The notes under the pieces: generated by a model | Seen by the model: the letters and a program-made list of their open reading frames with translations, nothing else | Database searches by the model: none | What the model was told of the DNA's origin: nothing | Shown: piece after piece, positions 3,439-47,010 of the stretch | Numbering within the stretch: the first letter of the stretch is position 1 | How the letters are laid out: the number at the start of each line of letters is the position of its first letter | Program-made: the position numbers and the translations under genes | DNA from: an uncultured Clostridia bacterium | GTDB lineage: Bacteria; Bacillota; Clostridia; Christensenellales; CAG-138 | Assembly (NCBI GenBank): GCA_937915455.1 | Contig: CALDNN010000196.1 | Coordinates: forward strand, 8,945 to 72,944 | Reading direction: 5' to 3' | DNA: 64,000 bases

Positions 3439-5175
3439 TTATAGCGACAACAGGCGGTCGCCCATGATCTCCTCAGCACTCCACTTAATCAGCGCAAACT
3501 TACCGGCCGCATGTTTATCAATACGATTGAGCCACTCAACTTCGCCTGCTGCTTTTGCCGCCAGCATGGGGTTGGTTGTGTTCGTGCCGTAAAGGGACTG
3601 ATTGACAACCCACCATTTAGCAGCGATGCCCGCCCGTTTTAGATCATCCTCCAAACGCAGCGCCTCATAAACGGGAGTCGCTTCGGGCAGGGTCACAATA
3701 ATGACTTCGGTTTCTTTGGATTTCAGCCGGGGCAACAACCTCTTTACCGCTTCGGGAATTTCACCCTTGGTACGTTGGATTTCGTGGTTATAGCTTTGTG
3801 TGGATTCTAGTAAGAGAAGGGTGTGACCGGTGGGCGCGGTATCGATTACCACCACTTGATCATCCGCTTTTTCCACAACATCTGCAAACGCCCGGAATAC
3901 GGCGATCTCCTGGGTGCAGGGGGAGCGTAGATCTTCCTCCACATAGGCGATGTCCTCGTTGCTCATGCCGGATGCGCGGGCTTTCGATAGCACCTCGAAT
4001 TGATATTTTTCCAACTCCTCGGCCTCGTCGATATGGCTCATGGAAACACCGCTGCTCTCGTCCAGCACGAATTTTAGGTGTGCAGCAGGGTCGGTGGTGG
4101 TGAGATGGACTCTCTTTCCTCGATTCGCAAGTCCAAGCGCGATAGCGGCAGCCACGGTAGTCTTACCTACGCCGCCCTTGCCCATGGTGAAAATGACGCG
4201 CTTTCCCTCTGCGGCCAGTTCGTCTATCACATCGTTCAGCACGGGAATATGCGTAGCGTGCAGCGTTTGCGCATGGGCGGTCACGCGGTCGGCATGCAGC
4301 AGGGCGCGCACGTTTTCAAGACCTGTGACATTATAGGCTCGAAGTGGAACCATATAGCGAGGAAATGATCGCAGGCCCTCCGGCAGCGCGATAAAGGCTG
4401 CTTGCTGCTTTTCATACAGGCTAAGTGATAAGGCATCGCTGTGTTCCATGAGCATGCCGTTGATGACTAACGTTTGATTGTTTACGCCCAATGCGGAAAG
4501 CTCGTTGGAAGCCCGTTCCGCCTCCTTGAACGGTGCGATTTCGGGACGAGTAACGAGGATCAACGTGGTCAGGTTGCCGTCTGCCAGTGTTTCCACGGCC
4601 TGCTTGTAGATGGCTTTCTTGCTCTCCAAGCCTGAAAGCTGGCCCAAGCAAGACGCCCCATGTGTGCTTTCGCTTATGAAATTGCTCCACGCGGAGGGAA
4701 GTTGAAGCATCCGCAGGGTATGGCCTGTGGGCGCAGTATCAAAAATAATATGGTCGTATTCCTGCTGTATCTTATCGTCGGTAATGAAGCTGGAAAACTC
4801 ATTGAACGCCGCGATTTCGACTGTGCAGGAGCCGGAAAGCTGTTCCTCCATATTAGCGATCACGGACGCGGGTAATCTGCCACGGTAAGGCGCGATCACG
4901 CTTTCCCGGTACTCGGCGGCGGCTTGTATGGGGTCTAGGTTTGCTACCGTCAAATTCGGTACGCCTGGGATGGGTGTTCCTCTGTTGGTTAATTCCATCG
5001 AAAAAACATCCTGTAAATTGGAAGCGGGGTCGGTGCTGATAAGCAACACTTTTTTTCCGCTGTCCGCCAGCGTCACGGCTGTGGCGCAGGCGATGCTGGT
5101 TTTGCCAACGCCGCCTTTGCCGGTATAGAAAAGGTATTTTGTCAGGTTGATATTGTTGGGATCGAATACCTTCAT
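3439..5175 (-). CDS. arsA: Arsenite-stimulated ATPase ArsA (two fused halves)
   Basis: 578 aa. Two P-loops (GKGGVGKTS, GKGGVGKTT) and two DTAPTGHT signal-transduction motifs. Confidence 0.95.
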   Translation of the reverse strand: MKVFDPNNINLTKYLFYTGKGGVGKTSIACATAVTLADSGKKVLLISTDPASNLQDVFSMELTNRGTPIPGVPNLTVANLDPIQAAAEYRESVIAPYRGRLPASVIANMEEQLSGSCTVEIAAFNEFSSFITDDKIQQEYDHIIFDTAPTGHTLRMLQLPSAWSNFISESTHGASCLGQLSGLESKKAIYKQAVETLADGNLTTLILVTRPEIAPFKEAERASNELSALGVNNQTLVINGMLMEHSDALSLSLYEKQQAAFIALPEGLRSFPRYMVPLRAYNVTGLENVRALLHADRVTAHAQTLHATHIPVLNDVIDELAAEGKRVIFTMGKGGVGKTTVAAAIALGLANRGKRVHLTTTDPAAHLKFVLDESSGVSMSHIDEAEELEKYQFEVLSKARASGMSNEDIAYVEEDLRSPCTQEIAVFRAFADVVEKADDQVVVIDTAPTGHTLLLLESTQSYNHEIQRTKGEIPEAVKRLLPRLKSKETEVIIVTLPEATPVYEALRLEDDLKRAGIAAKWWVVNQSLYGTNTTNPMLAAKAAGEVEWLNRIDKHAAGKFALIKWSAEEIMGDRLLSL

Positions 5176-8851: not shown

Positions 8852-10306
8852 ATGAACTTCAAAATCATCCTGCGGATACTGGGCGATCTCTTTTTAATCG
8901 AGGCGTTGCTTCTGGTTCCGTCTGTCGGATTAGCGATCTACGATGGGGAGGCCCATGTACTTAGGGCGCTTGCCATCACGATCGTGCTTCTAGCGCTCCT
9001 CGCGCTTGCCATACGAATTATTTTCAGGTGTAAGGAGCGTACTTTTTACGCCAGGGAGGGTTTCGTCCTGGTGGGCGCAGCCTGGATTACTCTCTCCGCT
9101 TTCGGGGCGCTCCCGTTCTACCTCAGCGGGGAGATTCCCCATTATGTGGATGCGTTCTTTGAGATCGTATCCGGCTTTACCACCACCGGCTCCTCCATTT
9201 TAACCAACGTGGAGGCGATGAGCCGCCCTCTGCTCTATTGGCGGAGCTTTTCCCATTGGGTAGGAGGAATGGGCATCCTCGTGTTCATGCTGGCGCTCAT
9301 GCCTAGCGCCAAGGGCAACGGCAGCAACTTCCATTTGCTCCGCGCGGAGAGCCCAGGCCCCTCGATTGAAAAGATGACGCCCAAAATGCAGAGCCACGCG
9401 AGCGCTCTCTACATCATCTACATCGTCTTGACGATCCTGTGCCTGGTTTTGCTGGTCGCGGGCGGGATGCCTTTCTTTGACAGCCTCTGCATCACCTTTG
9501 GTACGGCGGGTACCGGCGGCTTCGGCATCAAAGTGGATTCCATGGCCTCTTACCCCACGTTCTGCCAGGGGGTGGTTACGGTCTTTATGGCGCTGTTCGG
9601 CGTCAACTTCAACATTTACTTTTTGCTCCTGCTCCGCAGGTGGAAGGAGGCTCTGTTAGACGAGGAGCTGCGGGTTTACCTAGGCATTATGCTCAGCGCC
9701 ATTGCCATCATCACGCTGAATGTCACCCACCTCTTTTCCAACCTATGGGAAGCGGCTCACCATGTCGCTTTCTCAGTGAGCAGCGTAATGACCACCACCG
9801 GATACGTCACCGCCAACTTCGACAAATGGCCGGAGCTCTCCCGGGGTATCCTGCTAGTGCTGATGCTGTTCGGAGCGTCGGCGGGCTCCACCGGCGGCGG
9901 CATCAAGATCGTGCGCCTGGTGATGATGGCCAAATCCGCCCGGCGGGAATTGCGCCGAATGCTTCATCCCGGTTCGGTGATGTCGGTACGGATGAACAAC
10001 CGCTCCGTCGGGGAAAACACCCTTCAGGGTGTCGGCGTGTTTATGACCTATTACCTGACGATTCTGGTATCCTCCTTTCTGCTGGTTTCCCTAGATGATT
10101 TCTCGTTGGAAACCAACCTCTCGGCGGTGATCTCCTGCCTGAACAACATCGGCCCCGGCCTGGGGATGGTAGGGCCCGATGGGAACTTTGCCGCATACTC
10201 CCCCCTGAGCAAACTGGTTTTATCTGCGGATATGCTGCTGGGCCGCCTAGAAATCTTCCCTCTGGTCATCCTATTCAGCCCTCGCTCTTGGCATAGAACG
10301 GTATAA
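8852..10306 (+). CDS. trkH: TrkH/KtrB-type potassium transporter membrane subunit
   Basis: From ORF 8828..10306. Start MNFKIILRILG lies 8 nt after GAGGGA. Polytopic, with repeated selectivity-filter-like TTTGS / GTAGTGGFG / TTTGY / GSTGGGIK motifs. Confidence 0.9.
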   Translation: MNFKIILRILGDLFLIEALLLVPSVGLAIYDGEAHVLRALAITIVLLALLALAIRIIFRCKERTFYAREGFVLVGAAWITLSAFGALPFYLSGEIPHYVDAFFEIVSGFTTTGSSILTNVEAMSRPLLYWRSFSHWVGGMGILVFMLALMPSAKGNGSNFHLLRAESPGPSIEKMTPKMQSHASALYIIYIVLTILCLVLLVAGGMPFFDSLCITFGTAGTGGFGIKVDSMASYPTFCQGVVTVFMALFGVNFNIYFLLLLRRWKEALLDEELRVYLGIMLSAIAIITLNVTHLFSNLWEAAHHVAFSVSSVMTTTGYVTANFDKWPELSRGILLVLMLFGASAGSTGGGIKIVRLVMMAKSARRELRRMLHPGSVMSVRMNNRSVGENTLQGVGVFMTYYLTILVSSFLLVSLDDFSLETNLSAVISCLNNIGPGLGMVGPDGNFAAYSPLSKLVLSADMLLGRLEIFPLVILFSPRSWHRTV

Positions 10307-10469
10307 CCATTTTATGTTTCATAACCTGATGGTTCCTTTTATAGGAAAGCTTGATGATACGTTTGGTGCATCAAGCAATCCTGGTGAGGATAAAAGATAT
10401 TCAGATTTCAAGAAGCGGGCTGTGAACATGAGCTATAGCAGCGAACGCCCAGCCAAGGTTTGCCCGGCC

Positions 10470-11171
10470 TCAAGCGTCGATGATAAAAATGCCTAGCTCC
10501 TTCCGGCCCGGCAGGTAAAAAGGAAAATCGCACCTGCCGGTGGAAACGAGGTTCTCGGCCAGAAAGGCTTGGAGCTCCCCATCCGCTATAGCCGGGCTAT
10601 TGCAGCGGATGAAAGCGGCCGCGTCCGCCTCGCTTCGCAGGGGCTGGCCGAATTCAAAGGTGCTTCGTAGCAGCTGGTAAGTAAGTCCGGTCCTATCCAG
10701 TAGGGCGGCGATATCCGGCACGGTCTCGCGCTTCTTGCTGTGACCGTTGGGCTGGAGAGCAGCACCCTCCGGCTTGGCGTTGGCTACTCTTATTAACGAA
10801 CGAGAGGCCAGTTTCAGGCAATCCAGCATCATTTGCGGCGGGGGGCCGAAAAAGACCATGAGCACAACATCGAAAACCTCTCGGATATCCCGTGCATCGC
10901 CGCATATTGTGGTTAGGTTTGCAATGCCGGCCTCGGCAGCATTCTGCCGCAGGTTCGCCAGCACGGCCTCGTCCGTATCCACACAAGTGATATGATTTAC
11001 CATCGGGGTCAGGGCCAAGTCCAGCCCGCCCAGGCCGCATCCCATGTCACACAGGCGATCCTGCGGCAAAAGATAAGGGCGTATGGTATCCGCCAGCCTT
11101 TGGTGGAAATCGCGGTAGCGGCTGGCATCCAGATACCAATCTATGCGCTGCTTCGTCCAAATAAATGCCAC
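10470..11171 (-). CDS. Class I SAM-dependent methyltransferase, substrate unknown
   Basis: 233 aa. Motif I DMGCGLGGLDL, and an acidic residue after beta-2 (VDTD). Confidence 0.75.
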   Translation of the reverse strand: MAFIWTKQRIDWYLDASRYRDFHQRLADTIRPYLLPQDRLCDMGCGLGGLDLALTPMVNHITCVDTDEAVLANLRQNAAEAGIANLTTICGDARDIREVFDVVLMVFFGPPPQMMLDCLKLASRSLIRVANAKPEGAALQPNGHSKKRETVPDIAALLDRTGLTYQLLRSTFEFGQPLRSEADAAAFIRCNSPAIADGELQAFLAENLVSTGRCDFPFYLPGRKELGIFIIDA

Positions 11172-11443
11172 GTGCTTCTCTCCTTATTGGTTCACGCGCC
11201 GCCACTTATCGAATAGCCTGCCGCGTGGGTCTTCTGATTGTTTACATCCCACTCATCCGCCGTACATCCCACATGGCGGCAGAAGAGGACGGATGTGAGC
11301 TATGGCTATTCCCCAACCCCCCAAAAATTGCGATAATAGATTGCTTACGTCTTTAGCTGCCCCATAGCGGCTCCTTTTTATGCGAAAAGGGCGAAAGGCC
11401 GCGTTTCCGGGCCTCCCGCCTCCCAATGGGTGGGTGGAGTCGC

Positions 11444-12619
11444 TTATGCCGCCGGTTGCAGCGCTGCAGCCTTGAGGGTGGAATTGCCCAACAGACTCTG
11501 CACTTCTGCGTCGGTCAGCTCGTACCGGTAGAAGAGGCTGAAGAAATCCTTTACTTCCTTTTCGATGTCATAATCGAAGACCTCGGGATAAAGGAGGTTG
11601 CCAAGCCAGCGCACGCTGATCATGCGGTTGGGTCCCGGCGGGCGGCCCAGCCAGTTATAAGGCTCTGTGGGTATCTCGTAATACGTGTCATTTTTAATGG
11701 CATTGAGGGCCGCCCAGGAGGTATCCTCGGCTACGGTGGCATAAATGCTGCCTTGCGCAAACATGATCACATCCGGATCCCAGGCCAGCAGTTGTTCCAT
11801 GGAGATAGTGCCGCCGCCCTGCTGCACTTGGGCATTGCCCGCTTCCACCACGATCTTCGCGCCCACCAGCTCGTAGATTTGGGAGTGGATGGTGCCGCTG
11901 AGGATAGTGGAAAGGCCGGTATCCTTTTCGCCGTAGTAAACGGTTTTGCGCTTCGCCTCGGGGATGGAGGCCGCCTTTTCTTTGGCGTCCGCGAGTACGG
12001 TTTCACAATAGGAGGCCAGGGCTTCGCCCCGCGCCGGTTCGCCCAACAGCGAGCCGATGGTGCGATAGGCCGCGGGATTCTGCTCCAAGTTAGCTTCCAC
12101 CAAGATCACCGGGATGCCAAGCTGCTCCTGCAAGGTGTCAAGATCGGCCTTGTATTCTTCATCCCACTCGCCCACGTCGATGATGACCTCGGGTGCGCTG
12201 GCCATGAGGGCCTCGCGGTTGAAATCCTCTGCGTTGTCATAGAACTTGCCGTATTCCGGCAGATCCCAATAGGCTTCGCCGATGTACTTTTGGGCTAGCT
12301 TGGAAGGGCTGCTCGACCAACCCACGATCACCTCGGGCTTTACTGCATAGATCATGATGTTAGCCAGGGGGCCGCCGCTGGCTACGCGGGTGATGTTGCG
12401 AGGAAGTTCCACCTCGCGGCCGGTGGAATCGGTGAAGACATAGGTTTCGCTTTCTGGCTCAACTGTGGGTTCCGGCTCCGGTGCAGGGGCAGCCGGCTCA
12501 GCCGCGGGAGCCGCCGGTTCCGGGGCCGCTGCGGAGGGCGCTGCGCCGCAGCCGGCCAAGGCCAGCGTGAGGGCCAGGCACAACGCCAGGCATATGCATG
12601 CTCGCCAATTCTTGTTCAT
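11444..12619 (-). CDS. ABC transporter substrate-binding lipoprotein, FecB/BtuF (siderophore/cobalamin, type II importer) class
   Basis: From ORF 11444..12817. Start MNKNWRACICLALCLALTLALAGC (lipobox) at 12619, preceded by GGAGAG. Pro/Ala/Glu linker, then a periplasmic-binding-protein-2-like body. Confidence 0.85.
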   Translation of the reverse strand: MNKNWRACICLALCLALTLALAGCGAAPSAAAPEPAAPAAEPAAPAPEPEPTVEPESETYVFTDSTGREVELPRNITRVASGGPLANIMIYAVKPEVIVGWSSSPSKLAQKYIGEAYWDLPEYGKFYDNAEDFNREALMASAPEVIIDVGEWDEEYKADLDTLQEQLGIPVILVEANLEQNPAAYRTIGSLLGEPARGEALASYCETVLADAKEKAASIPEAKRKTVYYGEKDTGLSTILSGTIHSQIYELVGAKIVVEAGNAQVQQGGGTISMEQLLAWDPDVIMFAQGSIYATVAEDTSWAALNAIKNDTYYEIPTEPYNWLGRPPGPNRMISVRWLGNLLYPEVFDYDIEKEVKDFFSLFYRYELTDAEVQSLLGNSTLKAAALQPAA

Positions 12620-12639
12620 GGTCACTCTCCTTTTTTGCA

Positions 12640-13425
12640 TTATATCGTCATCGGCAGGCAAACCTTCACCCGCCGCTGATCGCGCTTTAAAGCGATATCC
12701 GCCAGCTGGATATCGATGCCGTACAGAGTGCGCAAGGTCTCCTCTGTGAGGATGGCATCCGGTGCGCCCAAAGCGAAATATCCATCCTTGCCCACGGCCA
12801 GCACTTTGTTGGCGCACAAAAAGGCATGGCCCGGCACATGGGTGATCATTACGATGGTGTAGCCCAAACCGGCGAGTTTTTTCACTTGGGCCAGCACACG
12901 GGTTTCGTTGCCGTAATCGAGGTGGGCGGTAGGCTCGTCCATCACCAAAAGCTTGGTGTTTTGCGCCAAAGCCCGGGCGATCATCACCATTTGCCGTTCG
13001 CCGCCGCTCACCTCAGTGTAATCCCTCTCTGCCAGGTGATCGATGCCCAGGAGGGCCAGCTTTTCATCGGCCGTATCATAATCCGCCTTGCCGGGGGAGG
13101 ATAACTCGTGCATATTGGGATTGCAGCCCATCACCACCACATCCCGCACCGCATAGGGAAAGGGCGGGATATGGCCCTGGGGCACATAGGCCACCATGCG
13201 GGCAAACTCTTTGGGCGTATTGGCGTGATAATCGCTGCCGTTCACCACAATGGAGCCGCCAAGGGGTTTCAAAAGGCCGAGGATGGTTTTAAACAGGGTG
13301 CTTTTGCCGATACCGTTGGAGCCGATCAGGCAGGCGATATCCCCCTTCTCAATTTCAAAGGACAGGGGGCCGATCACGGGCTTATTCGGCGCATAGCCGC
13401 AGATGAGATTTTCTACCTTGATCAT
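12640..13425 (-). CDS. ABC transporter ATP-binding protein, FecE/FepC/BtuD class
   Basis: Walker A GSNGIGKST, signature VSGGERQ, Walker B LLVMDEPTAHLD. No permease gene is adjacent. Confidence 0.9.
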   Translation of the reverse strand: MIKVENLICGYAPNKPVIGPLSFEIEKGDIACLIGSNGIGKSTLFKTILGLLKPLGGSIVVNGSDYHANTPKEFARMVAYVPQGHIPPFPYAVRDVVVMGCNPNMHELSSPGKADYDTADEKLALLGIDHLAERDYTEVSGGERQMVMIARALAQNTKLLVMDEPTAHLDYGNETRVLAQVKKLAGLGYTIVMITHVPGHAFLCANKVLAVGKDGYFALGAPDAILTEETLRTLYGIDIQLADIALKRDQRRVKVCLPMTI

Positions 13426-13512
13426 GATACGAACCCCTTTTTAGAGCGGCCGTTTCCTTTATCAAATTTGTGGCGAATACGGATATCAAGCATGTGTTTT
13501 GGCTGTTCCTGC

Positions 13513-13593
13513 CAGCCTGCGTCGTTTTGCTGCCGATGTGCCCGAAGGTGAACAACAATCGGCAGCAGCGCCAGCCATCCGGCGCGCAGGCTG
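13513..13593 (-). promoter_or_regulatory. Candidate cis-regulatory RNA element (tight three-way junction) in the 5' leader of the ABC ATPase gene
   Basis: Minus-strand RNA. P1 is CAGCCUGCG / CGCAGGCUG, 9 bp (13593..13585 with 13521..13513). P2 is the hairpin CGCCGG-AUGG-CUGGCG, and its G-U pair exists only on the minus-strand transcript. P3 is UGCUGCCGAU / AUCGGCAGCA, 10 bp with a 20-nt loop. No class assigned. Confidence 0.4.
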
Positions 13594-13668
13594 CCTTTTA
13601 TTTCATTATCCAAATCCACGTCCACCTTCCGCGTTATTCTTTTGCAAAGCATACGATAATCTGATATG

Positions 13669-13697
13669 ATTATATGTATCCAAACGGAATATGTCAA
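13669..13697 (-). promoter_or_regulatory. Consensus sigma-A promoter driving the ABC ATPase/SBP operon
   Basis: On the minus strand: TTGACA (13697..13692), exactly 17 nt, TATAAT (13674..13669). This leaves a ~236-nt untranslated leader before the ATG at 13425. Confidence 0.7.
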
Positions 13698-13767
13698 TCA
13701 TACACGCAATATCTCCGGGTTTATCTATAGCGAACGAATAAAATAATGGGAAAGGTAATAAAGGACG

Positions 13768-15015
13768 ATGGCTTTGCAAAAAGAAATTATCCCAAAGCGG
13801 GGCGAAATGGTACGCTTGATCCTGGAACACGTACGTCCCATCGGGCGGGCAGAGCTGATTCCCTTCGACCAGGCCTGCGGCAGGGTCTGCGCCGAGGATG
13901 CATACAGCAGCAATACTCTGCCCAACCGGCCCGTGAGCCGCTTTGACGGCATCGCCGTACGCTTTGCGGATTTCGCGGCCGGCCCGCCGGATACCGCAGG
14001 CTGGCGTGAAGGCCTAGAATATGCCTATGGCAATACGGGCATCGCCCTGCCCGAGAGCTACGATACCATGATCCCCATCGAGGATGTTACCATACATGAA
14101 GTGGGCATCGAGGTGCGCGCGCAGCCCAAATACAGGGGCGAAATGGTGAACGCCGTCGGTGAAAACCTACGAAAAGGCGAGCGGCTTATCGCCAAGGGCG
14201 AGGTAATCGCACCGGCACACGTAGGCCTGCTGGCAGCCGGGGGCGTTGCCGAGGTGTGCGTATTTGCCAAGCCCCGGGTGGGCGTGATCCCCACCGGGGA
14301 TGAACTGGTGCCGCCTACTACCGATGTAGCGCCCGGCAAAAACGTGGAGACCAACAGCTATATGATCGCGGCTTATCTGGAAGGCTGGGGCGCTATGCCC
14401 TGCCGCTACCCTATCGTGCGGGATGATCCGCAGGCGATCCGGGCGGCCCTCCAAAATGCCCTAAACGAGAACGACGCGGTAGTCATCATCGCCGGCTCTT
14501 CCCTGGGCACCAAGGATTATACCCTCCGTGTGCTTGGAGAGATGGGGGAGGTGGTCGTGCCCCAACTGGCCCACGGGCCCGGGCGTAAGAGCAGCCTTTC
14601 AGTGGTGGGCGGCAAGCCGGTGCTGGGCGTTGCCGGGCCGCCGCTGGGCGCGCAAATCACCTGCGACCTCTATCTGGCCCCTTTTGTGAGCGCGCTGCAG
14701 GGCCTGCTGCCCGTGGAAATGCGCACGCTGGAAGTGATCGCGGATGATGCCTTCCGGCCCCACGAGGTGGATTTTTGTGAGCGGGTACATATTTATCAGG
14801 CAAAGGACGGCTATCATATCCGCTCTGCCTTTGCCCCCAAGACCACCCGCGCCCAGATGCAGGCCCTGGCAAACGGCAACTTTTATCGGGTTGCCGGAAC
14901 CGCCTGTGCGGCGGGGGGAAGGACCACCGTGGAGCTGCTTTGTCCGCCGGAATACCTGCCGGAGGGGGATATGCTGACTGAAATTTTAGGAGAGGATGTG
15001 AAGCCCTATGCATAA
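13768..15015 (+). CDS. MoeA-like molybdopterin molybdotransferase paralog (divergent)
   Basis: 415 aa with MoeA architecture. It has PVSRFDGIAVR where MoeA has SAMDGYAVR, a conserved IPTGDELV, and GSSLGTKDY where MoeA has GGVSVG. Confidence 0.75.
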   Translation: MALQKEIIPKRGEMVRLILEHVRPIGRAELIPFDQACGRVCAEDAYSSNTLPNRPVSRFDGIAVRFADFAAGPPDTAGWREGLEYAYGNTGIALPESYDTMIPIEDVTIHEVGIEVRAQPKYRGEMVNAVGENLRKGERLIAKGEVIAPAHVGLLAAGGVAEVCVFAKPRVGVIPTGDELVPPTTDVAPGKNVETNSYMIAAYLEGWGAMPCRYPIVRDDPQAIRAALQNALNENDAVVIIAGSSLGTKDYTLRVLGEMGEVVVPQLAHGPGRKSSLSVVGGKPVLGVAGPPLGAQITCDLYLAPFVSALQGLLPVEMRTLEVIADDAFRPHEVDFCERVHIYQAKDGYHIRSAFAPKTTRAQMQALANGNFYRVAGTACAAGGRTTVELLCPPEYLPEGDMLTEILGEDVKPYA

Positions 15016-15808
15016 TCCCTGGAAGCTGTATGATGAGCTGATCGAAGGAATCCCAGCCGAACCTACGATCAAATATTACCAGGGTGGCTACAATTGGAGC
15101 CGGGTGGTTTCCAGCGAGGATAGCATGGGCTTGGCCATGACCATCCCCATGATCACGCGGCCGGCGCTTTTTCATGATCCCACCCTGGCAGGCAAGCCCT
15201 TGCGGGAGGCGGCCCAATTGGTGAAAAGCTGGAATTTTGTGGAGGCCGCCTTAGGCATGGCCGCCATTAACAGCTGGTATAACCAGCCCAAGCGGGCCGA
15301 AAGCTGCGGCTTTGTGCATCCCAACGTAGCCAACGGCCTACGCGAGGCATTCGATGTGTATTTTGAAGAAGTACAGGGCAAAAAAGTATGCATCGTCGGC
15401 CACTTCCCCTTCATCGAAAAGCGCTTTAGCGGTTACTGCGACCTTTCCATTCTGGAGCGCAACCCGGACATGGGGGATTATCCCGACCCAGCCTGCGAAT
15501 ACATCCTGCCCGAGCAAGACTATGTGTTCATCACCGGCAGCACCTTTGTCAACAAGACCCTGCCGCGCCTATTGGCCCTTTCGCAAAACGCCCGGGTGGT
15601 GATCGTCGGCCCCAGTACGCCCCTCGCGCCCATCCTCTTCGAGCGCGGCGTTTACGGCCTCTCCGGCTTTACCTCCACCAGCATCGACAGATTGGAGGAC
15701 GCCTTGCGCGGCGCCAGTAACATGACCCTCTTCGACGCCGGGCTGATGGTGGATCAGATGCGGGTGGGAAGGTTATCATGCTCGACGTATCCGTCGGGAG
15801 GTAGATAA
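15008..15808 (+). CDS. DUF364/DUF4213-type protein (Rossmann-like; conjectured heavy-metal chelation family)
   Basis: 266 aa with N-terminus MHNPWKLYDELIEGIP typical of the family as I recall it. Overlaps the MoeA-like gene by 8 nt, which suggests translational coupling. Confidence 0.6.
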   Translation: MHNPWKLYDELIEGIPAEPTIKYYQGGYNWSRVVSSEDSMGLAMTIPMITRPALFHDPTLAGKPLREAAQLVKSWNFVEAALGMAAINSWYNQPKRAESCGFVHPNVANGLREAFDVYFEEVQGKKVCIVGHFPFIEKRFSGYCDLSILERNPDMGDYPDPACEYILPEQDYVFITGSTFVNKTLPRLLALSQNARVVIVGPSTPLAPILFERGVYGLSGFTSTSIDRLEDALRGASNMTLFDAGLMVDQMRVGRLSCSTYPSGGR

Positions 15809-15846
15809 AGAGGCCGGCGCAGAGCGGCTCGATGGAAAACCCACGT

Positions 15847-15975
15847 AGGGGATGTTGAAAAAGCGGTGGCGATGGCCGGGATTGACTTTATCCTCAATGT
15901 GGTGCTTAATAAAGAAGGCCACGCCGTGGCGGGGCATCCCGTGCAGGCACACGGGGAAGGATACAAGTTCGGCAA
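15847..15975 (+). pseudogene. Possible C-terminal remnant of a LarA/DUF2088-like gene
   Basis: A 42-codon open stretch GDVEKAVAMAGIDFILNVVLNKEGHAVAGHPVQAHGEGYKF bounded by stops. The resemblance is recalled from memory only. Confidence 0.2.
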
Positions 15976-16104
15976 TGTGCTTTAGATGCGCTTTTTAGCC
16001 TTGGCAGGCATAAGACGGCGGCCATCGCCATGGCGCTCGAGGAGAGCGAAGCATTATATCGAAGCTTTTGTTGAATTATAATAATTCTCAAGGAGAAATA
16101 AAGT

Positions 16105-17280
16105 ATGGATTATGCCAAAGAATCCCTGCGGCTACATGAACAATGGCGAGGCAAGATCGAGGTGATCGCCAGCGTGCCTACCAAAGATAAAACCGATCTG
16201 TCCCTCGCCTATACCCCCGGCGTGGCGCAGCCCTGCTTGGAAATTCAAAAGGATGTGAACAGGAGCTATGATCTGACTCGGCGCTGGAATATGTGCCTCG
16301 TGGTATCGGATGGCACAGCGGTTCTGGGCCTTGGCGATATCGGCGCGGAGGCCAGCATGCCGGTCATGGAGGGGAAGTGCGTCCTCTTTAAATCCTTTGG
16401 CGATGTGGATGCGTTCCCAATGTGCATCAAGAGCAAGGATGTGGATACCATCGTGGAAACGATCTACCAGATCTCCGGCTCTTTTGGCGGCGTAAACCTG
16501 GAGGATATCGCCGCGCCGCGCTGCTTCGAGATCGAACGCAAGCTCAAAGAGCGCTGCGATATCCCGATCTTCCATGATGACCAGCACGGCACGGCGGTCG
16601 TGACCTTGGCGGGCCTTGTCAACGCGCTCAAGGTCGTAGGCAAGAAAAAAGAGGATGTGAAGGTCGTTTTCAACGGCGCAGGCGCTGCCAGTGTATCCAT
16701 TACCAAGCTACTGCTTTCCGACGGCTTTGAGCATATCACCATGTGCGATCGCACCGGCATCATATACCAGGGCCGCGAGAAGGGCATGAACGCCGTTAAG
16801 GAAGAGATGGCGAAGATCACCAACCTGGAGAAGAAGCAGGGCAGCCTGGCCGACGCGCTGGTGGGCGCGGATGTATTCATCGGCGTTTCTGCTCCCGGCA
16901 CGGTTACGCGGGAAATGGTGCGGCCCATGGCGGATCAGGCGATCGTGTTCGCCTGCGCAAACCCCACGCCGGAAATTTTCCCGGACGAAGCCAGGGAAGG
17001 CGGCGCTACGGTGATCGCGACGGGCCGGAGCGACTTCCCGAACCAGGTGAATAACGTGCTCGCGTTCCCAGGCATTTTCAGGGGAACCTTCGATGTGCGC
17101 GCCTCGGATATCAACGACGAAATGAAGATCGCGGCGGCCTATGCCCTCGCTGGGCTCATTTCCGATAGCGAGCTAAGGGCGGATTATATCATCCCCGCTT
17201 CCTTTGACCCGCGGGTCAGCAAGGCCGTATCGGCGGCGGTCGCCGAGGCCGCGCGAAAGAGCGGCGTCGCCAGGATTTAG
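16105..17280 (+). CDS. NAD(P)-dependent malic enzyme (oxaloacetate-decarboxylating malate dehydrogenase), short form
   Basis: 391 aa. Contains LAYTPGVA, GLGDIG and the NAD-binding GAGAA motif. Confidence 0.9.
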   Translation: MDYAKESLRLHEQWRGKIEVIASVPTKDKTDLSLAYTPGVAQPCLEIQKDVNRSYDLTRRWNMCLVVSDGTAVLGLGDIGAEASMPVMEGKCVLFKSFGDVDAFPMCIKSKDVDTIVETIYQISGSFGGVNLEDIAAPRCFEIERKLKERCDIPIFHDDQHGTAVVTLAGLVNALKVVGKKKEDVKVVFNGAGAASVSITKLLLSDGFEHITMCDRTGIIYQGREKGMNAVKEEMAKITNLEKKQGSLADALVGADVFIGVSAPGTVTREMVRPMADQAIVFACANPTPEIFPDEAREGGATVIATGRSDFPNQVNNVLAFPGIFRGTFDVRASDINDEMKIAAAYALAGLISDSELRADYIIPASFDPRVSKAVSAAVAEAARKSGVARI

Positions 17281-35034: not shown

Positions 35035-37518
35035 ATGGAAAGTCAGGTATTGAGCATTCGTGGCATGACCTGCGCGGCCTGCGCCCAGCGCATCGAGAAG
35101 GCCGTAAAAAAGCTGCCCGGCGTGCAGCAGGCTGCCGTGAATCTGGCGAGCGAAAAGCTCTTTGTGGAATATGGCGAGGACGCTACCCTAGAGGATATCA
35201 AGGCGGCCGTGACCAAAATTGGCTATGAAGTCGAGGAAAAGGCGGCAAACAGCACCATCGCCATCCCCATCGGCGGCATGACCTGTGCTGCCTGTTCGCA
35301 GCGCGTCGAAAAGGTGCTCAATCGCCTCGACGGGGTGGTGAGCGCCTCGGTCAACCTGGCCACCGAAAAGGCCACGGTTACCTACGAGCCGCAGAAGATA
35401 CGCCAATCCGCCATCAAGGCGGCCATCGAAAAGGCTGGCTACCAGCCTTTGGAAATCGCCAAGACCGACGCCGCCGAGGAAGACCGGCTACGCAAGCAAA
35501 AGGCCATCCGCCTGCAATGGATCAAGTTCATCGTGGCCGCGGCCTTTGGCCTGCCGCTCCTATATATCGCTATGGCGCCCATGATAAGCTTTGTGCGTCT
35601 GCCCTTCCCGGCCTGGCTGCAGCCCATGCGCTACCCATTGATCTACGGCCTGGTGCAGATCGCGTTGGTGATCCCCATCATTGCCGTGGGGCATAGGTTT
35701 TACACCGTAGGCTTCAAGGCGCTTTGGCAGCGCAGCCCGAATATGGATTCGCTCATCGCCATCGGCACCACGGCCGCTGTGGTCTACAGCGTGTATAACG
35801 TATTTCAAATCGTTAAGGGCCATTATATGGCCGTGGACGCGCTCTATTTTGAGACCGCAGGCGTGATCATCGCCCTCATCATGCTGGGCAAAACGCTAGA
35901 AGCCGTTTCCAAGGGGAAGACCAGCGAGGCCATCAAAAAGCTGATGGGCCTAGCCCCCAAAACAGCCATCATCCTGCACGATGGCGAGGAAAAGGAAATC
36001 CCCATCGACGAGGTGGAAATCGGCGATATCCTCATCGTCAAGCCCGGCGCGAAAATACCCGTGGATGGCACCGTGCTTTCCGGCCACACGGCCATCGATG
36101 AATCCATGCTCACCGGCGAGAGCATGCCTGTGGATAAAAAAGCGGGGGATGCGGTCTACGCCGCGTCGCTCAACACCAACGGCAGCATCCAGTTCCGCGC
36201 CGAAAAGATCGGTAGCGATACGGCCCTGGCGCAAATCATCAAGCTGGTGGAGGATGCGCAGGGCTCCAAGGCCCCCATCGCCCAAATGGCGGATATCGTC
36301 TCCGGCTATTTCGTGCCTATCGTCGTGGCTATCGCCCTGGTTGCGGGCCTCGTCTGGCTGATCGGCACGGGCGGGGATGTGAAATTCAGCCTCACCATCT
36401 TCATCTCCGTGCTGGTCATCGCCTGTCCCTGCGCCCTGGGCCTGGCCACCCCCACAGCCATCATGGTGGGCACGGGAAAGGGCGCGGAAAACGGCATCCT
36501 CATCAAGGGGGGCGAAGCGCTGGAAACGGCGCACAAGGTGGATACCATCGTTTTCGATAAGACCGGCACCATCACCGAGGGCAAGCCCACGGTTACGGAT
36601 GTTCTGCCCGCAGACGGTTTCTCCGAAGAGGCGCTTATGCGCGTCACCGCCTCTGCGGAAATGGGTTCCGAGCACCCGCTGGGCCAGGCCATCGTGCAGG
36701 GTGCGCAGGAAAAGGGCCTGGAGCTTATGCAGGTGGCGGATTTCGAAGCCCTCACGGGCCGGGGCATCCGCGCCAAGATCAACGGCCAAACCATCCTCGC
36801 GGGCAACCGCAAGCTGATGGAAGAGCAGGGCGTCGCCCTGGGTGCGTTCGAGGCCGAGGCGGATAGGCTGGCCGGTGAAGGCAAGACCCCTATGTATGTG
36901 GCTGCGGATAACAGCCTTGCCGGCATCGTGGCCGTGGCGGATGTGGTCAAGCCCAGCAGTCGCCGGGCCATCGAGCGCCTGCATAAGATGGGCATTCAGG
37001 TGGCGATGATTACCGGTGATAACAAAAAGACCGCCGGCGCCATTGCCAAGCAGGTGGGGATCGACCGGGTACTGGCCGATGTGCTGCCGCAGGATAAAGC
37101 GGGCGAGGTCAAAAAGCTGCAAGCCGAAGGCCGTAAGGTGGCCATGGTGGGGGATGGCATCAACGACGCGCCCGCCCTGGCCCAGGCAGATGTGGGCATC
37201 GCTATCGGCTCGGGCACGGATGTGGCCATGGAGTCCGCGGATATCGTGCTCATGCGCAGCGATCTGATGGATGTTTCCGCGGCCATCGAGCTGAGCAAAA
37301 AGACCATCCGCAACATCAAGCAGAATTTGTTCTGGGCCTTTGGCTATAACTCCATCGGCATTCCCATCGCGGCGGGCCTGCTGTACCTGTTCGGCGGCCC
37401 CCTGCTCAACCCGATCTTCGCCGCCGCGGCCATGAGCCTCAGCTCCGTTTCGGTGGTGACCAACGCCCTGCGGCTCAAAGGCTTCAAGGTGACCCATTCC
37501 GAAGAGGAGGCGGTTTAG
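35035..37518 (+). CDS. copA: Copper-translocating P1B-type ATPase
   Basis: 827 aa. Two N-terminal HMA domains (GMTCAAC twice), CPC ([11 protein letters not shown]), [13 protein letters not shown]. Confidence 0.95.
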
Positions 37519-37520
37519 CC

Positions 37521-38192
37521 ATGAAAAACACCAAACGTATTGTTATGATCTCTCTGCTGGTGGCGCTGCTGCTCCTTTCCGCCGCCTGCGCCCAATTGAA
37601 ACAGGATCTGGATGTGATCGGGAAAGGCTCCACAGATTCCTTTGAAGCGCTGCTGCTAGCCGCGCCGGAGCAGATCAAAGATACGGCGGGTGGCTGGGCC
37701 TTCCAAGCGCCGGATGGCGGCGCGAAGTTCATCTGGCGTGAGGATTGGAGCGCCGGCAACGACGTTCAGCTCGTCTTCGACGCCTCGCCCTTCCTGGCCG
37801 CCGGGCTGGATGCAGCCAAGCTACCGGAAGCTTACGCCTACGATGGCGAAACCATCACTATGGGCGTGGAATTAGGCGAAGCATCCGTACAGGATGGTAC
37901 GCCCCTTGGGGCCTACGAGCGGATCGTCAGGCTCGCGCCGGATGCCATCGGCTACCATAGCGATATGGATCACTTTGGTGTGAGCCTGGGGGGCGGCAAT
38001 ATGTTCGAGTGGGCCAACGATTTAGAAGCCAATAATAAGGATATCGTATTTGCCCTCAACCCCGAACCGCTAATCGCTGCCGGGGTCGATCCGGGCGCTG
38101 TGGCGGGCTGGGCCTTTGCCAAGGTCTCCATGCACGAGCGCGGTAAAACGGTAGACGTAGATAGGCTTTTAAAGCCCTTCAACTTAGTATAA
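37521..38192 (+). CDS. Hypothetical lipoprotein with internal duplication, embedded in the cop operon
   Basis: Lipobox LLLLSAAC. Starts 2 nt after the copA stop. Two repeats align (GAKFIWREDWSAGNDVQLVFDASPFLAAGLD vs GNMFEWANDLEANNKDIVFALNPEPLIAAGVD). HSDMDH lies between them. Confidence 0.75.
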   Translation: MKNTKRIVMISLLVALLLLSAACAQLKQDLDVIGKGSTDSFEALLLAAPEQIKDTAGGWAFQAPDGGAKFIWREDWSAGNDVQLVFDASPFLAAGLDAAKLPEAYAYDGETITMGVELGEASVQDGTPLGAYERIVRLAPDAIGYHSDMDHFGVSLGGGNMFEWANDLEANNKDIVFALNPEPLIAAGVDPGAVAGWAFAKVSMHERGKTVDVDRLLKPFNLV

Positions 38193-38213
38193 ATAGAGAA
38201 AACGGAGGAAATT

Positions 38214-38426
38214 ATGATGGAAAAGAGCATCATTCGGGTCGACGGCATGTCCTGCCAGCATTGTGTGAAGGCCGTGAGTGGGGCCGTGAATGCCCTGCCG
38301 GGCATTGAGAGCGTGGAGGTGGATCTGGCGGCCAAAACGGTGGCCGTGGCGCACGACGCTGCCAAGAGCAGCCTCAAAACCATAAAAGCGGCCATCGAGG
38401 ATCAGGGCTACGATGTAGTCGGTTAA
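38214..38426 (+). CDS. copZ: Copper chaperone CopZ (HMA domain)
   Basis: 70 aa with the GMSCQHC metal-binding motif. GGAGGA RBS. Confidence 0.9.
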   Translation: MMEKSIIRVDGMSCQHCVKAVSGAVNALPGIESVEVDLAAKTVAVAHDAAKSSLKTIKAAIEDQGYDVVG

Positions 38427-38791: not shown

Positions 38792-41106
38792 ATGGCGACG
38801 GTTCGCTTGGACGCGCCGCTCAAGGTGAGCGGTCAGGCCCAATACACAGCGGATATCGACGCGCCGCCGCAGCTATATGCCGCCTATGCAGTGGCAGGTG
38901 TGGGTCATGGCGTGCTGCACGCCGTGCATACGCACGAGGCTGAGTGTCTAGATGGCGTACGCGCGGTCATCTGCGGGCGCGCGAGCCTGCCATTAACGGG
39001 CATTTTGCTGGAGGATCGGCCCATCTTGGCCACGGGCCGGGTGCGCTATGCAGGCGAACCTATTGCCCTGGTAGTTGCGGATACGCAGCAGCAGGCCGAA
39101 GCCGCCGCCCTGCTTATCACCGCCGATATCACGCCCCTGCCCGTGGTCAACGCGCTGGATGAAGCCCTGCGGGCCGGCGCAGCGCTTTTGCACCCGGAGC
39201 TGGCAGGTTACGCCAAGCTGGTGGAGGATGTTTATCCTCAGTCGGGTACAAATATCGCTTCCTCGTATAGAATTTCTAAGGGCGACAGCAGTACCGCTTT
39301 TTCTCAATGCGTCGTCGTTGTGAGCATACCTACCACCTGCCGCAATCAGACCACATCGCGCTGGAGCCACGCTGCTCTAGCGCCCTGTTTCTTGCAGACG
39401 GCAGGTTGAAGATCCGCAGTTCCACCCAAGCACCCTATACGGTGCGTTGGCTGGTAGCCAAGGCCCTGGGCCTGGAAATGGGCAAGGTGGAGGTGGAAAC
39501 GCCTTTTCTGGGCGGGGCCTTTGGAGGGAAAACCCCGGTATTCCTCGAATATCTGGCCGCGCTGGCTGCCCGCAAATTCCCAGGATTTACCATTAAGCTG
39601 GAAAACAGCCGTGGCCGGGATATGGCCTCATCCCCCAGCCGTCTGGCTTTAGAGGCGGTTATCCGCCTTGGCGCGGACGTAAACGGCAAGATCCTTGCGG
39701 CCAGGATGGAATATCTCTTGGATTGCGGGGCCTATTGCGATATCGCCCCCAATATGGCCAAGGCCATCGCCGTGGATTGCAGCGGGCCCTATAATATCGA
39801 AAATTTATACTGCGATTCCCTCTGCGTGTATACCAACCATACATACGCCACCTCTTTTCGCGGCTTCGCCCACGAATCTTATACCTTTTGCCTGGAGCGC
39901 ACGCTAGATGCGCTGGCAGACGCGTTGCATATGGACAAATTGCAGCTGCGGGAGATCAATGCCATCCGCCCCGGCGATTTCACGCCCACCATGGTCAAGA
40001 CCAACGCCAGCAACCTGGGGAATGTAGCCGCCTGTATCAACAGCCTGCGTAGCCAGCTTGATTGGCAGGCGGGGGAGCGCGTGCAGCTAGAAAATGGCCT
40101 GATCCGGGCCAAAGGGATATCCCTGCTGTGGAAGACGCCTAACCCTAGCCTCCGGGCCAGTGCCGGAGCCGTGCTCACATTTAATGGAGACGGCAGCGCC
40201 AACCTCAATGTGGGCGTGGTGGAGATGGGGAATGGTGGCAAGGAGACGCTAGCCCTACTGGCGGCCCAGCGCCTGCGGATGGCGGCCGGCCGCGTGCACG
40301 TTTCTTTTTCTGTGGATACCAAGCTTACGCCGGAGTATTGGAAGACCGTGGCTTCCCTTTCGAGCTTCCTCGCGGGCAAAGCGGTGATCGCCGCTTGCGA
40401 CGATGCCCTGCGCCAGCTTATCAGCCAGGCGGCGATCGTCCTACGCTGCTCAGAGGAAGATCTTGATTATGGGCAAGAAAAGGTCTTTTTCAAGGGCGAA
40501 CCGGATTTTTGCGTGGGCTATCAGGATCTTGTTTCCGGCGTGATCCTTAGCGGAGGCAACTCTATAGGCGGCCAGATCATCGGCAGGGGTAGCCATGTGA
40601 TGCGCCACACCGGCCCTCTGGCGAAGGATACCGGCAAGGGGAGAACCGGCCATTCCTGGACGGTGGGCGCGCAGGGAGTAGAGGTGGAATACGACCCAAA
40701 GGATCATTCTTACCGCCTGCTTCGGGCCTGCACTTCCATGGATATTGGCGCCGTGCAGGATTTTGACGCAGCAGTTGCCATGATCCGTGGAGGCATGAGC
40801 ATGGGTTTGAGCCTGGCGCGCAATGAGGAATATATTTACGATGAAGGCGCCCGCCTATTGACCGCTAGCCTACGCAACTATGAGCTGCTGCGTATTGGCG
40901 AAGAACCGGCCTATGATGTGGCACTCATCACCACACCGCAGGCGGATGCGCCTGGCGGCATGCGCGTTTTTTCTGAACATGGCGTGATCGGCATGCCCGC
41001 AGCTCTGGCCAATGCCCTTTCCTGCGCGGCCGGGGTATCACTGGACATGCTGCCGCTCACGCCGGAGAGCATTTGGTACGCCCTTGGGCAGGAGAGCGCG
41101 CTGTGA
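38792..41106 (+). pseudogene. Xanthine-dehydrogenase-family molybdopterin-binding large subunit, split by a frameshift near 39322
   Basis: ORF 38792..39409 carries the a/b-hammerhead N-terminus (LDAPLKVSGQAQYTAD). ORF 39307..41106 carries the rest (HTYHLPQSDHIALEP, GGAFGGK). The junction reads GTTGTGAGCAT; one extra G would give ...SQCVVVVEHTYHLPQ. Confidence 0.8.
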
Positions 41107-41927
41107 TTCCCTGCAACTTCGATTATTATCGGCCAGAAAGCCTGCAAGAGCTGGGCCAGGCCATCCGCGAAGCGCCCCGGCCTTTTCAATTCCTGGCCGG
41201 CGGCACGGAGATCGTGACGATGGCGCAGGCGGGGGAGGTCGCCCCTAAAGCAGTGATCGACCTCAAGGCCATACCCGCCTGCAACAAGCTGGCTATGGAA
41301 AACGGCAGGCTGCACATGGGCGCGGCCCTGACGTTGACACAAGCGGCCACATCCGGCCTCTTTCCCCTGCTGGGGAGCGTGGCCCGGCGCATATCCGACC
41401 ACACCAACCAATGCACCATCACGCTGGGCGGGAATATCTGCGGCACGATCGCCTACCGCGAGGCCATTTTGCCTCTGCTGCTCTCGGAGGCGCGGGCGGG
41501 CTTCTTTCGCAAGGGGCGGGTCGTTGAGCAAAAGCTGGCCGATTGCTTTCATGGCCGCTTGCAGCGGGAGGAAGAAACCGCGCTGCTCTACCTCTGCGTG
41601 GAGCAAAAATACCTGTCCATGCCTTATGTCCATGTGAAAAAGGTAAAAAACGAAAAGATCGACTATCCGCTTCTAACCCTCGCCGCACTCAAAGCGCCCG
41701 AAGGAGTCCGGCTGGCGGTCTCGGGCCTTTGCTCTTTCCCCTTTTTAGTTGAATGTGCGGCGCTGGCGGACCCAAGCCGCATGCCCGGCCAAAGGGCGGA
41801 GGCGGTGATCAAAAGCCTGCCCGAGCAGCCCCGTGCGGACTCCTTCGCCAGTGCCGCATGGCGCGCCTTCATCATGAAGCAGGCTGTGGAGGATGCTATC
41901 GCCCGATTGGAGGGCAGGGGAGGATGA
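41103..41927 (+). CDS. Mo-hydroxylase FAD-binding (medium) subunit, CoxM/XdhB-like
   Basis: Starts (V)IPCNFDYYRPESLQEL....FLAGGTE. The GTG at 41103 overlaps the large-subunit stop (GTGA). Confidence 0.8.
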   Translation: MIPCNFDYYRPESLQELGQAIREAPRPFQFLAGGTEIVTMAQAGEVAPKAVIDLKAIPACNKLAMENGRLHMGAALTLTQAATSGLFPLLGSVARRISDHTNQCTITLGGNICGTIAYREAILPLLLSEARAGFFRKGRVVEQKLADCFHGRLQREEETALLYLCVEQKYLSMPYVHVKKVKNEKIDYPLLTLAALKAPEGVRLAVSGLCSFPFLVECAALADPSRMPGQRAEAVIKSLPEQPRADSFASAAWRAFIMKQAVEDAIARLEGRGG

Positions 41928-42401
41928 TCGTTTACAAAGGCAAGGCGGAAATCACCCTGCTTGTGAACGGCCGGACCCACGTGCTATGGGTACGGGCCGC
42001 GGATGTGCTGCTGGATGTGCTACGCGGCCAGCTGGGCCTCACCGGGGCCAAGCCCGGCTGCCGCAATGGCGATTGCGGGGCCTGCACCGTGGTAATGGAC
42101 GGGCTGCCCGTCAAAAGCTGTCTGGTTCTTGCCTGTGCCGCAGAGGGTAAGCAGATCCTCACCGTGGAGGGCATTGGTGAAAGCCCGCTGGCCAAAGCTT
42201 TTAGTGAAGCCAGGGCCTTTCAATGCGGCTATTGTACGCCGGGCTTCCTGATGGCCAGCTTACGCCCTTTTGCAAAATGAGCCTCAGGCGGACGAGGGCA
42301 CAATGGAGGAATGGCTGCAAGCAAACATCTGCCGTTGCACCAGCTATGCGGAGATCCGTGCGGCCCTGCGCGCTGTTTTGCCGGGCACGGCGCGGCCGTG
42401 A
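41924..42401 (+). pseudogene. Mo-hydroxylase [2Fe-2S] small subunit, C-terminus displaced by a frameshift near 42260
   Basis: MIVYKG...GCRNGDCGACTV...QCGYCTPGFLMAS, then a premature stop. The second cluster motif (LLQNEPQADEGTMEEWLQANICRCTSY) continues in another frame to the TGA at 42399..42401. AGCTTACGCC would be in frame as AGCTACGCC. Confidence 0.8.
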
Positions 42402-42442
42402 AGAAGTACCTCGCCTTTACGGGGGCTCTATCGTGACGAAGA

Positions 42443-46779: not shown

Positions 46780-47010
46780 AGGTTGTATGGGTTTTCGGGC
46801 TGTGGTTGCAAATCGATGCCAGTCGCAGGCGAAACGATCCACATAAGCGGGCAAAGCCCGTGAGCATGGTGCGGCTTAGATGTAAGTCCGCCCGTGGCCA
46901 TTGACCACGAGAGGAGCAGTAGTGGGGGGCATAATGCCTAGTAGCGAACCTCCCGGGCGGCGAGTGTGGGGTCAAAGACCAGGTCAGCCGAAAGGCCGGC
47001 AACCAGAAAA
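46780..47010 (+). ncRNA. Candidate structured RNA / long 5' leader upstream of the zinc-ribbon gene (class unassigned)
   Basis: TATAAT at 46767..46772. Hairpins CGGGC-AAA-GCCCG (46848..46860), GTGG-CCATTGA-CCAC (46894..46908) and GGCAT-AA-TGCC (46928..46938). A long-range 7-bp pairing CCGCCCG (46888..46894) / CGGGCGG (46954..46960) is stacked on GAGG/CCTC. No ORF. Confidence 0.4.

Follow-up and report, generated by a model that had tools for sequence, protein, structure and literature searches.

A probable molybdenum or tungsten uptake-and-insertion cluster with a MolB-type permease remnant in an uncultured Clostridia bacterium

MolBC-A (HI1470, HI1471 and HI1472) of Haemophilus influenzae is a type II ATP-binding cassette (ABC) importer whose binding protein binds molybdate and tungstate; in that organism it provides low-affinity molybdenum uptake (PMC4031551). 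A link between DUF364 proteins and Mo/W transporters is not new either; it was already published in 2010 with the structure of Dhaf4260, for which the genome context of the family was tied to transporters of Fe, W, V and Mo and E148 was described as the adenosyl-ribose-binding acid in an interdomain pocket (PMC2954201). In a 2024 preprint, the DUF364 gene of the Methanococcus maripaludis modABC operon showed cofitness with nifH, with polar effects not excluded. The sole DUF364 protein with a demonstrated reaction is Orf5 of the bonnevillamide cluster, reported in 2026, which cyclises 4''-methyl-S-adenosylmethionine (4''-methyl-SAM) to methyl-azetidine-carboxylate with release of methylthioadenosine (MTA) and has Tyr61 and Glu204 as catalytic residues (PMC12930334). 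Here we analyse a stretch of 64,000 nucleotides from an uncultured Clostridia bacterium (contig CALDNN010000196.1; the whole stretch is called the window), in which genes for a MoeA-like protein and a DUF364 protein are divergent from genes for an ABC ATPase and a substrate-binding protein (SBP). Coordinates are window positions unless a locus label is given; labels such as L001 or L048 denote homologous loci from genomes and metagenome contigs of relatives, with coordinates of their own, which were gathered by a DUF364 protein search (one genome per species) and by exact-protein look-ups.

We consider it quite probable that this is a gene cluster for molybdenum (or tungsten) uptake and insertion, a type that is common in anaerobic Firmicutes, found here in a decayed state with its permease destroyed. 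The minus-strand operon would originally have encoded a MolB permease, a MolC ATPase, a MolA lipoprotein SBP and a methyltransferase-like (MT-like) protein. The importer would bring in molybdate or tungstate oxyanions, judging from homology to the H. influenzae system, and MoeA would insert the metal into adenylylated molybdopterin, as suggested by its catalytic residues and by a moaA linkage in its clade. The translationally coupled DUF364 protein, with its adenosyl-type ligand pocket, would stand between import and insertion. That an oxyanion is imported and the metal then inserted by MoeA is the standard route and not the undescribed acquisition and insertion route proposed in the initial annotation of this DNA, which observed the gene arrangement correctly and singled out a module that proves conserved and tied to Mo/W, but whose permease-less chelate system is not supported.

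All four open reading frames (ORFs) on which that annotation was built are present. On the plus strand, the MoeA-like gene (13768..15015, 415 aa) encodes a MoeA-family protein of a Clostridia-type clade and contains both reported motifs, SRFDGIAVR and GSSLGTKDY. The start of the DUF364 gene (15008..15808, plus strand, 266 aa) runs 8 nt into the end of moeA, as had been described, and its product is a DUF4213/DUF364 protein of the Dhaf4260-like subfamily A, with Pfam matches above both gathering thresholds (PF13938, DUF4213, 4e-19 and 69.1 bits, cut-off 23.5; PF04016, DUF364, 3e-35 and 121.5 bits, cut-off 23). On the minus strand lie the gene of the MolC-like ABC ATPase (12640..13425, 261 aa; ABC_tran, 5e-30) and that of the MolA-like SBP (11444..12619, 391 aa), a Peripla_BP_2 protein (9e-19) of class III type with the lipobox LALAGC ending its signal peptide. 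Directly downstream of the SBP gene, the last gene of the mol operon encodes a class I SAM-methyltransferase-like protein (10470..11171, minus strand, 233 aa); it is a conserved member of the module and was absent from the initial annotation. A predicted sigma-70-type promoter (13669..13697, minus strand, TTGACA-17-TATAAT), a pattern match only, agrees with the consensus at 12/12 hexamer positions and points toward the permease remnant (13425..13625, minus strand), the ATPase and the SBP. As this perfect match still faces the remnant, ATPase and SBP are probably still transcribed. With dN/dS values against L001 of 0.060 (SBP), 0.108 (ATPase), 0.16 (MoeA), 0.142 (DUF364) and 0.195 (MT-like), the five intact genes are under purifying selection (0.06–0.20), so that the permease loss would be recent relative to the divergence from L001, or the remaining parts still used.

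That no intact FecCD permease is encoded in the 64 kb was borne out by a tblastn search with the 341-aa L001 permease, which found fragments at 13425..13625 only. The 342 bp between the ATPase and MoeA genes had been taken as intergenic; the interval itself stands, but it is the remnant of a MolB-type FecCD permease gene, and the same gap measures about 1.2 kb in close relatives. In these relatives (L001–L005, L008 and L036–L038; DUF364 77–89% identical), a permease gene separates the ATPase gene from the divergent MoeA gene, sitting exactly between ATPase and divergent promoter, so that the window carries a scar and not a permease-less design. The initial annotation had itself allowed that a permease at this place in close relatives would speak against such a design. 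Every relative locus with an ATPase/SBP pair has a FecCD permease gene (338–354 aa), which is full in L001–L004, L008, L036–L038, L006/L033–L035, L007, L015, L021 and L023–L025, and present yet split over two frames in L005.

The window and L001 share 88% nucleotide identity and are colinear in blastn up to L001 position 7617, resuming at 8541. Of the sequence in between, the window retains just two short stretches of permease sequence, both inverted: 13436–13491 corresponds to L001 8121–8066, and 13490–13554 to L001 8007–7943. The scar keeps permease codons 1–27 (13625..13545) and the last 8 codons (13448..13425). It is spanned by a 91-aa ORF (13422..13697, minus strand) whose N-terminus is permease-like (NEIKGSLRAGWLALLPIVV, compared with NEKKGSQRAGWLALLPVVV in the permease), whose middle is an antisense reading of internal permease sequence, and whose C-terminus, overlapping the ATPase start, is formed by the final eight residues of the permease, RSKKGFVS. 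The permease gene was lost by a complex deletion and inversion in which about 924 bp shrank to about 100 bp.

For all three parts of the transporter, the nearest homologues that have been characterised are MolA, MolB and MolC, not members of the siderophore/cobalamin class to which the initial annotation had assigned them as a chelate uptake system. Against the PDB, the L001 permease matched MolB HI1471 (2NQ2_A) at 2.3e-79 with 270 bits, compared with 168 bits for HmuU, 160 for FhuB and 139 for BtuC. The best PDB match of the ATPase was MolC HI1470 (2NQ2_C; 9e-42, 146 bits), and FhuC was the next transporter partner (2e-34, 123 bits). The SBP family profile matched MolA HI_1472 (3PSA/3PSH) over its full length (8e-31, 111 bits); IsdE (6e-14, 55 bits) and BtuF and FhuD (about 1e-7 to 1e-11; BtuF 33–45 bits) ranked far below. 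SBP, ATPase and permease pass no NCBIfam model, and their corrinoid, haem and Fec matches, all far under cut-off, explain the earlier impression of a 'FecE/FecB-type' pair. Neither an equivalog pass nor cobalamin or iron regulation, by which a siderophore, haem or cobalamin importer could be recognised, was found. A corrinoid importer had been hinted at by the top NCBIfam model of the ATPase ('corrinoid ABC transporter ATPase'), by a weak likeness of the MT-like protein to CpaM/CbiT and by a URO-D gene near L036. It was rejected: the supporting matches are far under cut-off, the Mol proteins are better homologues, and the sole cobalamin riboswitch, at L015, faces away.

The transporter therefore appears to be of the MolBC-A kind, with molybdate or tungstate as its putative substrate by homology to H. 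influenzae. It shares with MolBC-A the combination of class III SBP, FecCD-fold permease and ATPase, which is complete in intact relatives (L001–L004, L008, L036, L033, L048 and others), and a probable Mo/W link, here suggested by riboswitches and a Mop neighbour of homologous loci. It differs in that the window copy has no permease, only a scar of about 200 bp, and in that its SBP is a Gram-positive lipoprotein distant from MolA. Operons of the window type are furthermore coupled to moeA, DUF364 and an MT-like gene, and we found no paper describing such coupling for the Haemophilus MolBC-A. As encoded here, the importer cannot work unless another permease substitutes.

The profile of the MoeA clade aligns with E. 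coli MoeA residues 13–402, C-terminal domain included, and the clade has the four-domain MoeA architecture. Pfam recovered the expected MoeA_N (9e-27) and MoCF_biosynth (2e-21) domains, but not MoeA_C; since the profile alignment reaches residue 402, we read the C-terminal domain as present yet divergent. Residues D60, T90, E179, D219, D250 and P291 show no variation among 22 clade members (33–91% identity) and correspond in the profile alignment to E. coli D59, T100, E188, D228, D259 and a conserved Pro. According to the 2NQ and 2NR mutant series, the five named E. coli residues reportedly have roles in the catalytic cleft. The position equivalent to E. coli D142 is not conserved in the clade and is Asn in the window protein. 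At L057 (7983..14496, a human-gut species), a 40%-identical clade member with no DUF364 gene nearby lies directly upstream of MoaA (Radical_SAM and Mob_synth_C), followed by a xanthine/uracil permease, SelD, a TusA/DsrE protein and a class V aminotransferase (cysteine desulfurase), a context typical of selenium-dependent Mo hydroxylases. Linkage to molybdopterin synthesis is seen in the clade through L057, not in the window itself. Because the catalytic residues are conserved and a clade member is linked to moaA, we infer that the clade is probably the working MoeA of many Clostridia and not a neofunctionalised paralogue. Compared with E. coli MoeA, gephyrin E and Cnx1E, the clade has in common the alignment over residues 13–402 and the five cleft residues, and differs in its divergent C-terminal domain, the loss of the D142 position and its coupling to DUF364 in about two thirds of the clade loci sampled.

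The combination of MoeA-like protein, DUF364, ATPase and SBP to which the initial annotation had drawn attention is indeed conserved across relatives, down to about 35–40% identity and in differing gene orders. L048, from a widespread Clostridia species, has permease, ATPase, periplasmic binding protein (PBP), DUF364 and MoeA in this order on one strand, its MoeA being 38% identical to the window protein, and L050 has the order MoeA-PBP-DUF364. In a MoeA-centred scan of metagenome contigs, DUF364 was found inside the available flank in about 13/19 distinct clade loci by hand count (L054, L060, L064–L066, L070–L072, L074, L079, L099, L103 and L107); lower-identity tandem MoeA and MoeA-PBP-fusion loci, which serve as a natural control, had none. 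In L070, the MoeA-DUF364 pair is directly followed by a group II intron domain (RF00029, 2380..2452). In a DUF364-centred genome scan that took in 32 loci, the partners were the Mol-type permease, ATPase and SBP (13/32 each), the MT-like gene (12/32), MoeA (8/32), a CobW/HypB-type GTPase (12/32) and a soluble 339-aa ABC-like ATPase (15/32). Literature searches on DUF364, on MoeA with FecCD and on Moco riboswitch contexts returned no paper describing a MolABC/MoeA/DUF364 module.

The suggested tie to Mo/W held up in homologous operons, which are preceded by molybdenum or tungsten cofactor (Moco/Wco) riboswitches, and in L033, where a 70-aa protein passing the Mop model (TIGR00638) adjoins the module. 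The Moco/Wco riboswitch (RF01055) was found with 80 bits directly upstream of MoeA-PBP-DUF364 in L050. In L107, one RF01055 element lies directly upstream of SBP-permease-ATPase-MT-MoeA and a separate one upstream of the DUF364 gene. L016 (3237..11497) has two tandem RF01055 elements with a 122-aa ORF (3451..3819) in between, the second of which directly precedes an operon of formate dehydrogenase, a 148-aa unknown protein, a CobW/HypB-type GTPase, the 339-aa soluble ABC-like ATPase, DUF364 and the MT-like protein. The formate dehydrogenase gene is split by a single in-frame stop, possibly a selenocysteine codon. A triad of CobW, ABC-like ATPase and DUF364 recurs in L011–L015, L017, L019 and L023–L025. 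The P3 stem of the aptamer is absent in L050 and L016 and present in L107; P3 loss was tentatively tied to the tungsten cofactor by Regulski et al. (PMC2408646), and given this variation the module may serve either metal, by organism. No Rfam match was obtained for L048.

The molybdenum hydroxylase operon, mentioned in the initial annotation as lying 24 kb away, exists (38792..42410, plus strand) and belongs to the xanthine-dehydrogenase family (Ald_Xan_dh_C, MoCoBD_1/2 and FAD_binding_5), but it carries two frameshifts and is itself damaged as support. The large subunit shifts frame near 39310–39325, between AFSQCVVVV and EHTYHLPQSDHIALEPR, and is split into ORFs of 205 aa and about 566–599 aa. 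The 2Fe-2S subunit stops at 42280 after 118 aa, and its NICRCTSYAEI tail is read in a different frame. The truncated 205-aa and 118-aa products are also called in the metagenome-assembled genome (MAG) GCA_002409725.1 and in an independent SRA assembly (SRR29988989), and an exact-product look-up of the 599-aa large-subunit fragment gave no match. The hydroxylase is the likely client of the Mo pathway. The presence of three Mo-related lesions in a single window suggests that this lineage is losing its use of molybdenum. Permease scar and hydroxylase frameshifts together make recent decay of Mo use, with the remaining genes not yet degraded, the simplest reading. Lesions were also seen in relatives: MoeA is split over two frames in L002 (8763..10002), MoeA is cut to its last ~87 residues beside the split permease in L005 (8727..10005), and DUF364 is split in L008 (10001..10766), a nanopore MAG. 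They could be real decay or MAG errors and are given no weight.

Several observations weigh against a decayed Mo/W cluster. No riboswitch or Mo-responsive element was found with Rfam in the window or in the closest relatives L001, L002, L008 and L036. Near the locus there was no Rfam match, either in the search of the whole window at the gathering threshold or in that of 10000..16200 at E<=1, and a raiA RNA (46790..46996) and a tRNA were the only matches in the window. The SBP has low identity to MolA, which is outranked in the profile search by the uncharacterised PBPs 4PAG, 4OVK and 4HN9. MoeA falls under the NCBIfam equivalog cut-offs (NF007960, 172.9 against 440 bits; NF011068, 227.7 against 534 bits) in addition to its missing MoeA_C match. 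The evidence for decay of Mo use comes from three lesions in a single 64-kb window and not from the genome as a whole. Finally, the SBP and ATPase genes are under stronger purifying selection than the other three, which fits a very recent loss of the permease and also continued use with a permease encoded elsewhere.

The window DUF364 protein is 50% identical to Dhaf4260 (PDB 3L5O, 8e-61) and, in an alignment read against the published structure, keeps the pocket residues G37, N83, G129-H130, E148, T174 and T182, with changes of G39 to Ala, R42 to Ile and D180 to Asn (PMC2954201). It thus shares most pocket residues with Dhaf4260, and its gene context is of the kind published in 2010 for Mo, W, V and Fe transporters and known from DUF364 genes in methanogen mod/wtp operons; the methanogen proteins are partnered with ModABC or WtpABC, whereas the window protein is partnered with a Mol-type (type II) importer and MoeA. 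Its likeness to Orf5 is at the level of the Pfam family, and Orf5 differs in its Streptomyces secondary-metabolite context with a B12-radical-SAM methylase, no radical SAM gene being present in the window module. A second group, subfamily B, comprises proteins of about 280 aa that are 22–24% identical to the window protein and have an insertion with a conserved Cys-Cys-Pro motif (AVCCPSSAK), with members at L048 7153..8001, L050 10458..11288, L033 6907..7761 and L001 2960..3772. It co-occurs with the same Mol/MoeA module; L001, L003 and L006 hold both subfamilies, and the window subfamily A only. The MT-like protein matches Pfam Methyltransf_25/31/11 and has the motif I DMGCGLG, and searches of PDB and NCBIfam gave generic class I methyltransferases only and no specific relative. 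Its homologues adjoin the SBP or DUF364 gene in 12/32 DUF364 loci and lie inside the Moco-riboswitch operon in L107. Distant archaeal DUF364 proteins in L027 (8505..10973) and L028 (8901..10690) are encoded between Fe-S P-loop ATPases of the Mrp/NBP35/ParA type, with 4Fe-4S ferredoxin domains in L027, which suggests that DUF364 is more widely associated with the maturation of metallocofactors.

From its residues and gene context, we infer that the DUF364 protein has an adenosyl-containing ligand and functions at a stage between import and insertion, with SAM, an ATP/AMP-activated oxyanion and MPT-AMP as candidate ligands. More tentatively, and with considerable doubt, DUF364 (subfamilies A and B) and the MT-like protein, joined elsewhere by the CobW-type GTPase and the ABC-like ATPase, may form an undescribed core of Mo/W cofactor assembly in anaerobes.

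An unlikely alternative is that DUF364, possibly with the MT-like protein, uses SAM to build a nicotianamine- or azetidine-type ligand, so that the importer takes a metal-ligand complex and MoeA receives the metal. The annotated loci show no exporter and no biosynthetic genes past DUF364 and the MT-like gene, and amino-carboxylate ligands bind Mo(VI) and W(VI) oxyanions poorly. MolA, moreover, was reportedly crystallised with bare molybdate and tungstate by Tirado-Lee in 2011. Such a metallophore would nevertheless accord with the one characterised DUF364 enzyme, which turns a SAM derivative into an azetidine amino acid and releases MTA (PMC12930334), with the adenosyl-ribose-binding glutamate retained in the window protein (PMC2954201) and with the adjacency of DUF364 and MT-like genes in many loci. 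The reported low affinity of MolA for free molybdate leaves room for a different physiological ligand (PMC4031551).

It is highly improbable that the genes are chance neighbours, with an unremarkable ABC operon for iron-siderophore, haem or corrinoid, its permease deleted, beside an unrelated moeA-DUF364 operon. Pfam and NCBIfam do place the parts in FecCD, Peripla_BP_2 and corrinoid-haem-Fec ATPase classes, but all under equivalog cut-offs, and among characterised proteins MolA/B/C are closer than those of the Btu, Fhu, Fec or Hmu systems. Transporter, MoeA and DUF364 stay linked in varied gene orders and on single strands to about 35–40% identity (L048, L050, L054, L060, L074 and L107), and Moco riboswitches directly precede transporter genes in L107 and PBP genes in L050. 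A cobalamin riboswitch does occur near the homologous Acetobacterium woodii locus L015, but on the opposite strand and pointing away from the operon, and the window has no cobalamin riboswitch in Rfam searches. That the missing permease is an artefact of local misassembly or a collapsed region is barely credible: inverted fragments at a junction are a pattern that assembly errors can yield, but the scar is shared among independent assemblies and is therefore not such an error, as the 421-bp region that contains it is 100% identical in a MEGAHIT-style ENA contig (L039) and a contig of the NCBI MAG GCA_002409725.1 (L040), and 99.2% identical in a third sample (L045), whose 2 mismatches and 1 gap indicate a different strain.

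Further features of the window lie outside the module. Immediately upstream of the Mo hydroxylase genes, 35035..38426 (plus strand) encodes an 827-aa copper-type P1B ATPase with HMA domains, a 223-aa lipoprotein without a Pfam match and a 70-aa HMA (CopZ-like) protein. The raiA RNA (46790..46996, plus strand; RF03072, 188 bits) is located about 550 nt upstream of the anaerobic ribonucleotide reductase NrdD (47552..49855). Upstream of a TrkA/TrkH pair that borders the module, arsenic-resistance genes for ArsA, ArsD and an ArsR-type helix-turn-helix protein are found at 3439..5175 (minus strand) and neighbours (L039 1..2215). In GCA_002409725.1, ArsA has 423 aa as compared with 578 aa and the alignment of the contig to the window falls into three blocks, which suggests a strain-level rearrangement there.

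The importer without a permease thus reflects gene decay, not a new design, and pipelines that label such genes 'iron/corrinoid ABC transporter' probably mislabel a Mol-type Mo/W importer. The remaining interest lies in the accessory proteins, DUF364 and the MT-like protein, and not in the window copy. Our survey places the widespread DUF364 family inside Moco/Wco riboswitch regulons, translationally coupled to MoeA and with the MT-like protein, the CobW-type GTPase and the ABC-like ATPase as recurrent partners. Should these proteins form the proposed cofactor-assembly core, a riboswitch-controlled, adenosyl- or SAM-dependent step would capture, activate or select the oxyanion, or handle adenylylated molybdopterin, before insertion by MoeA.

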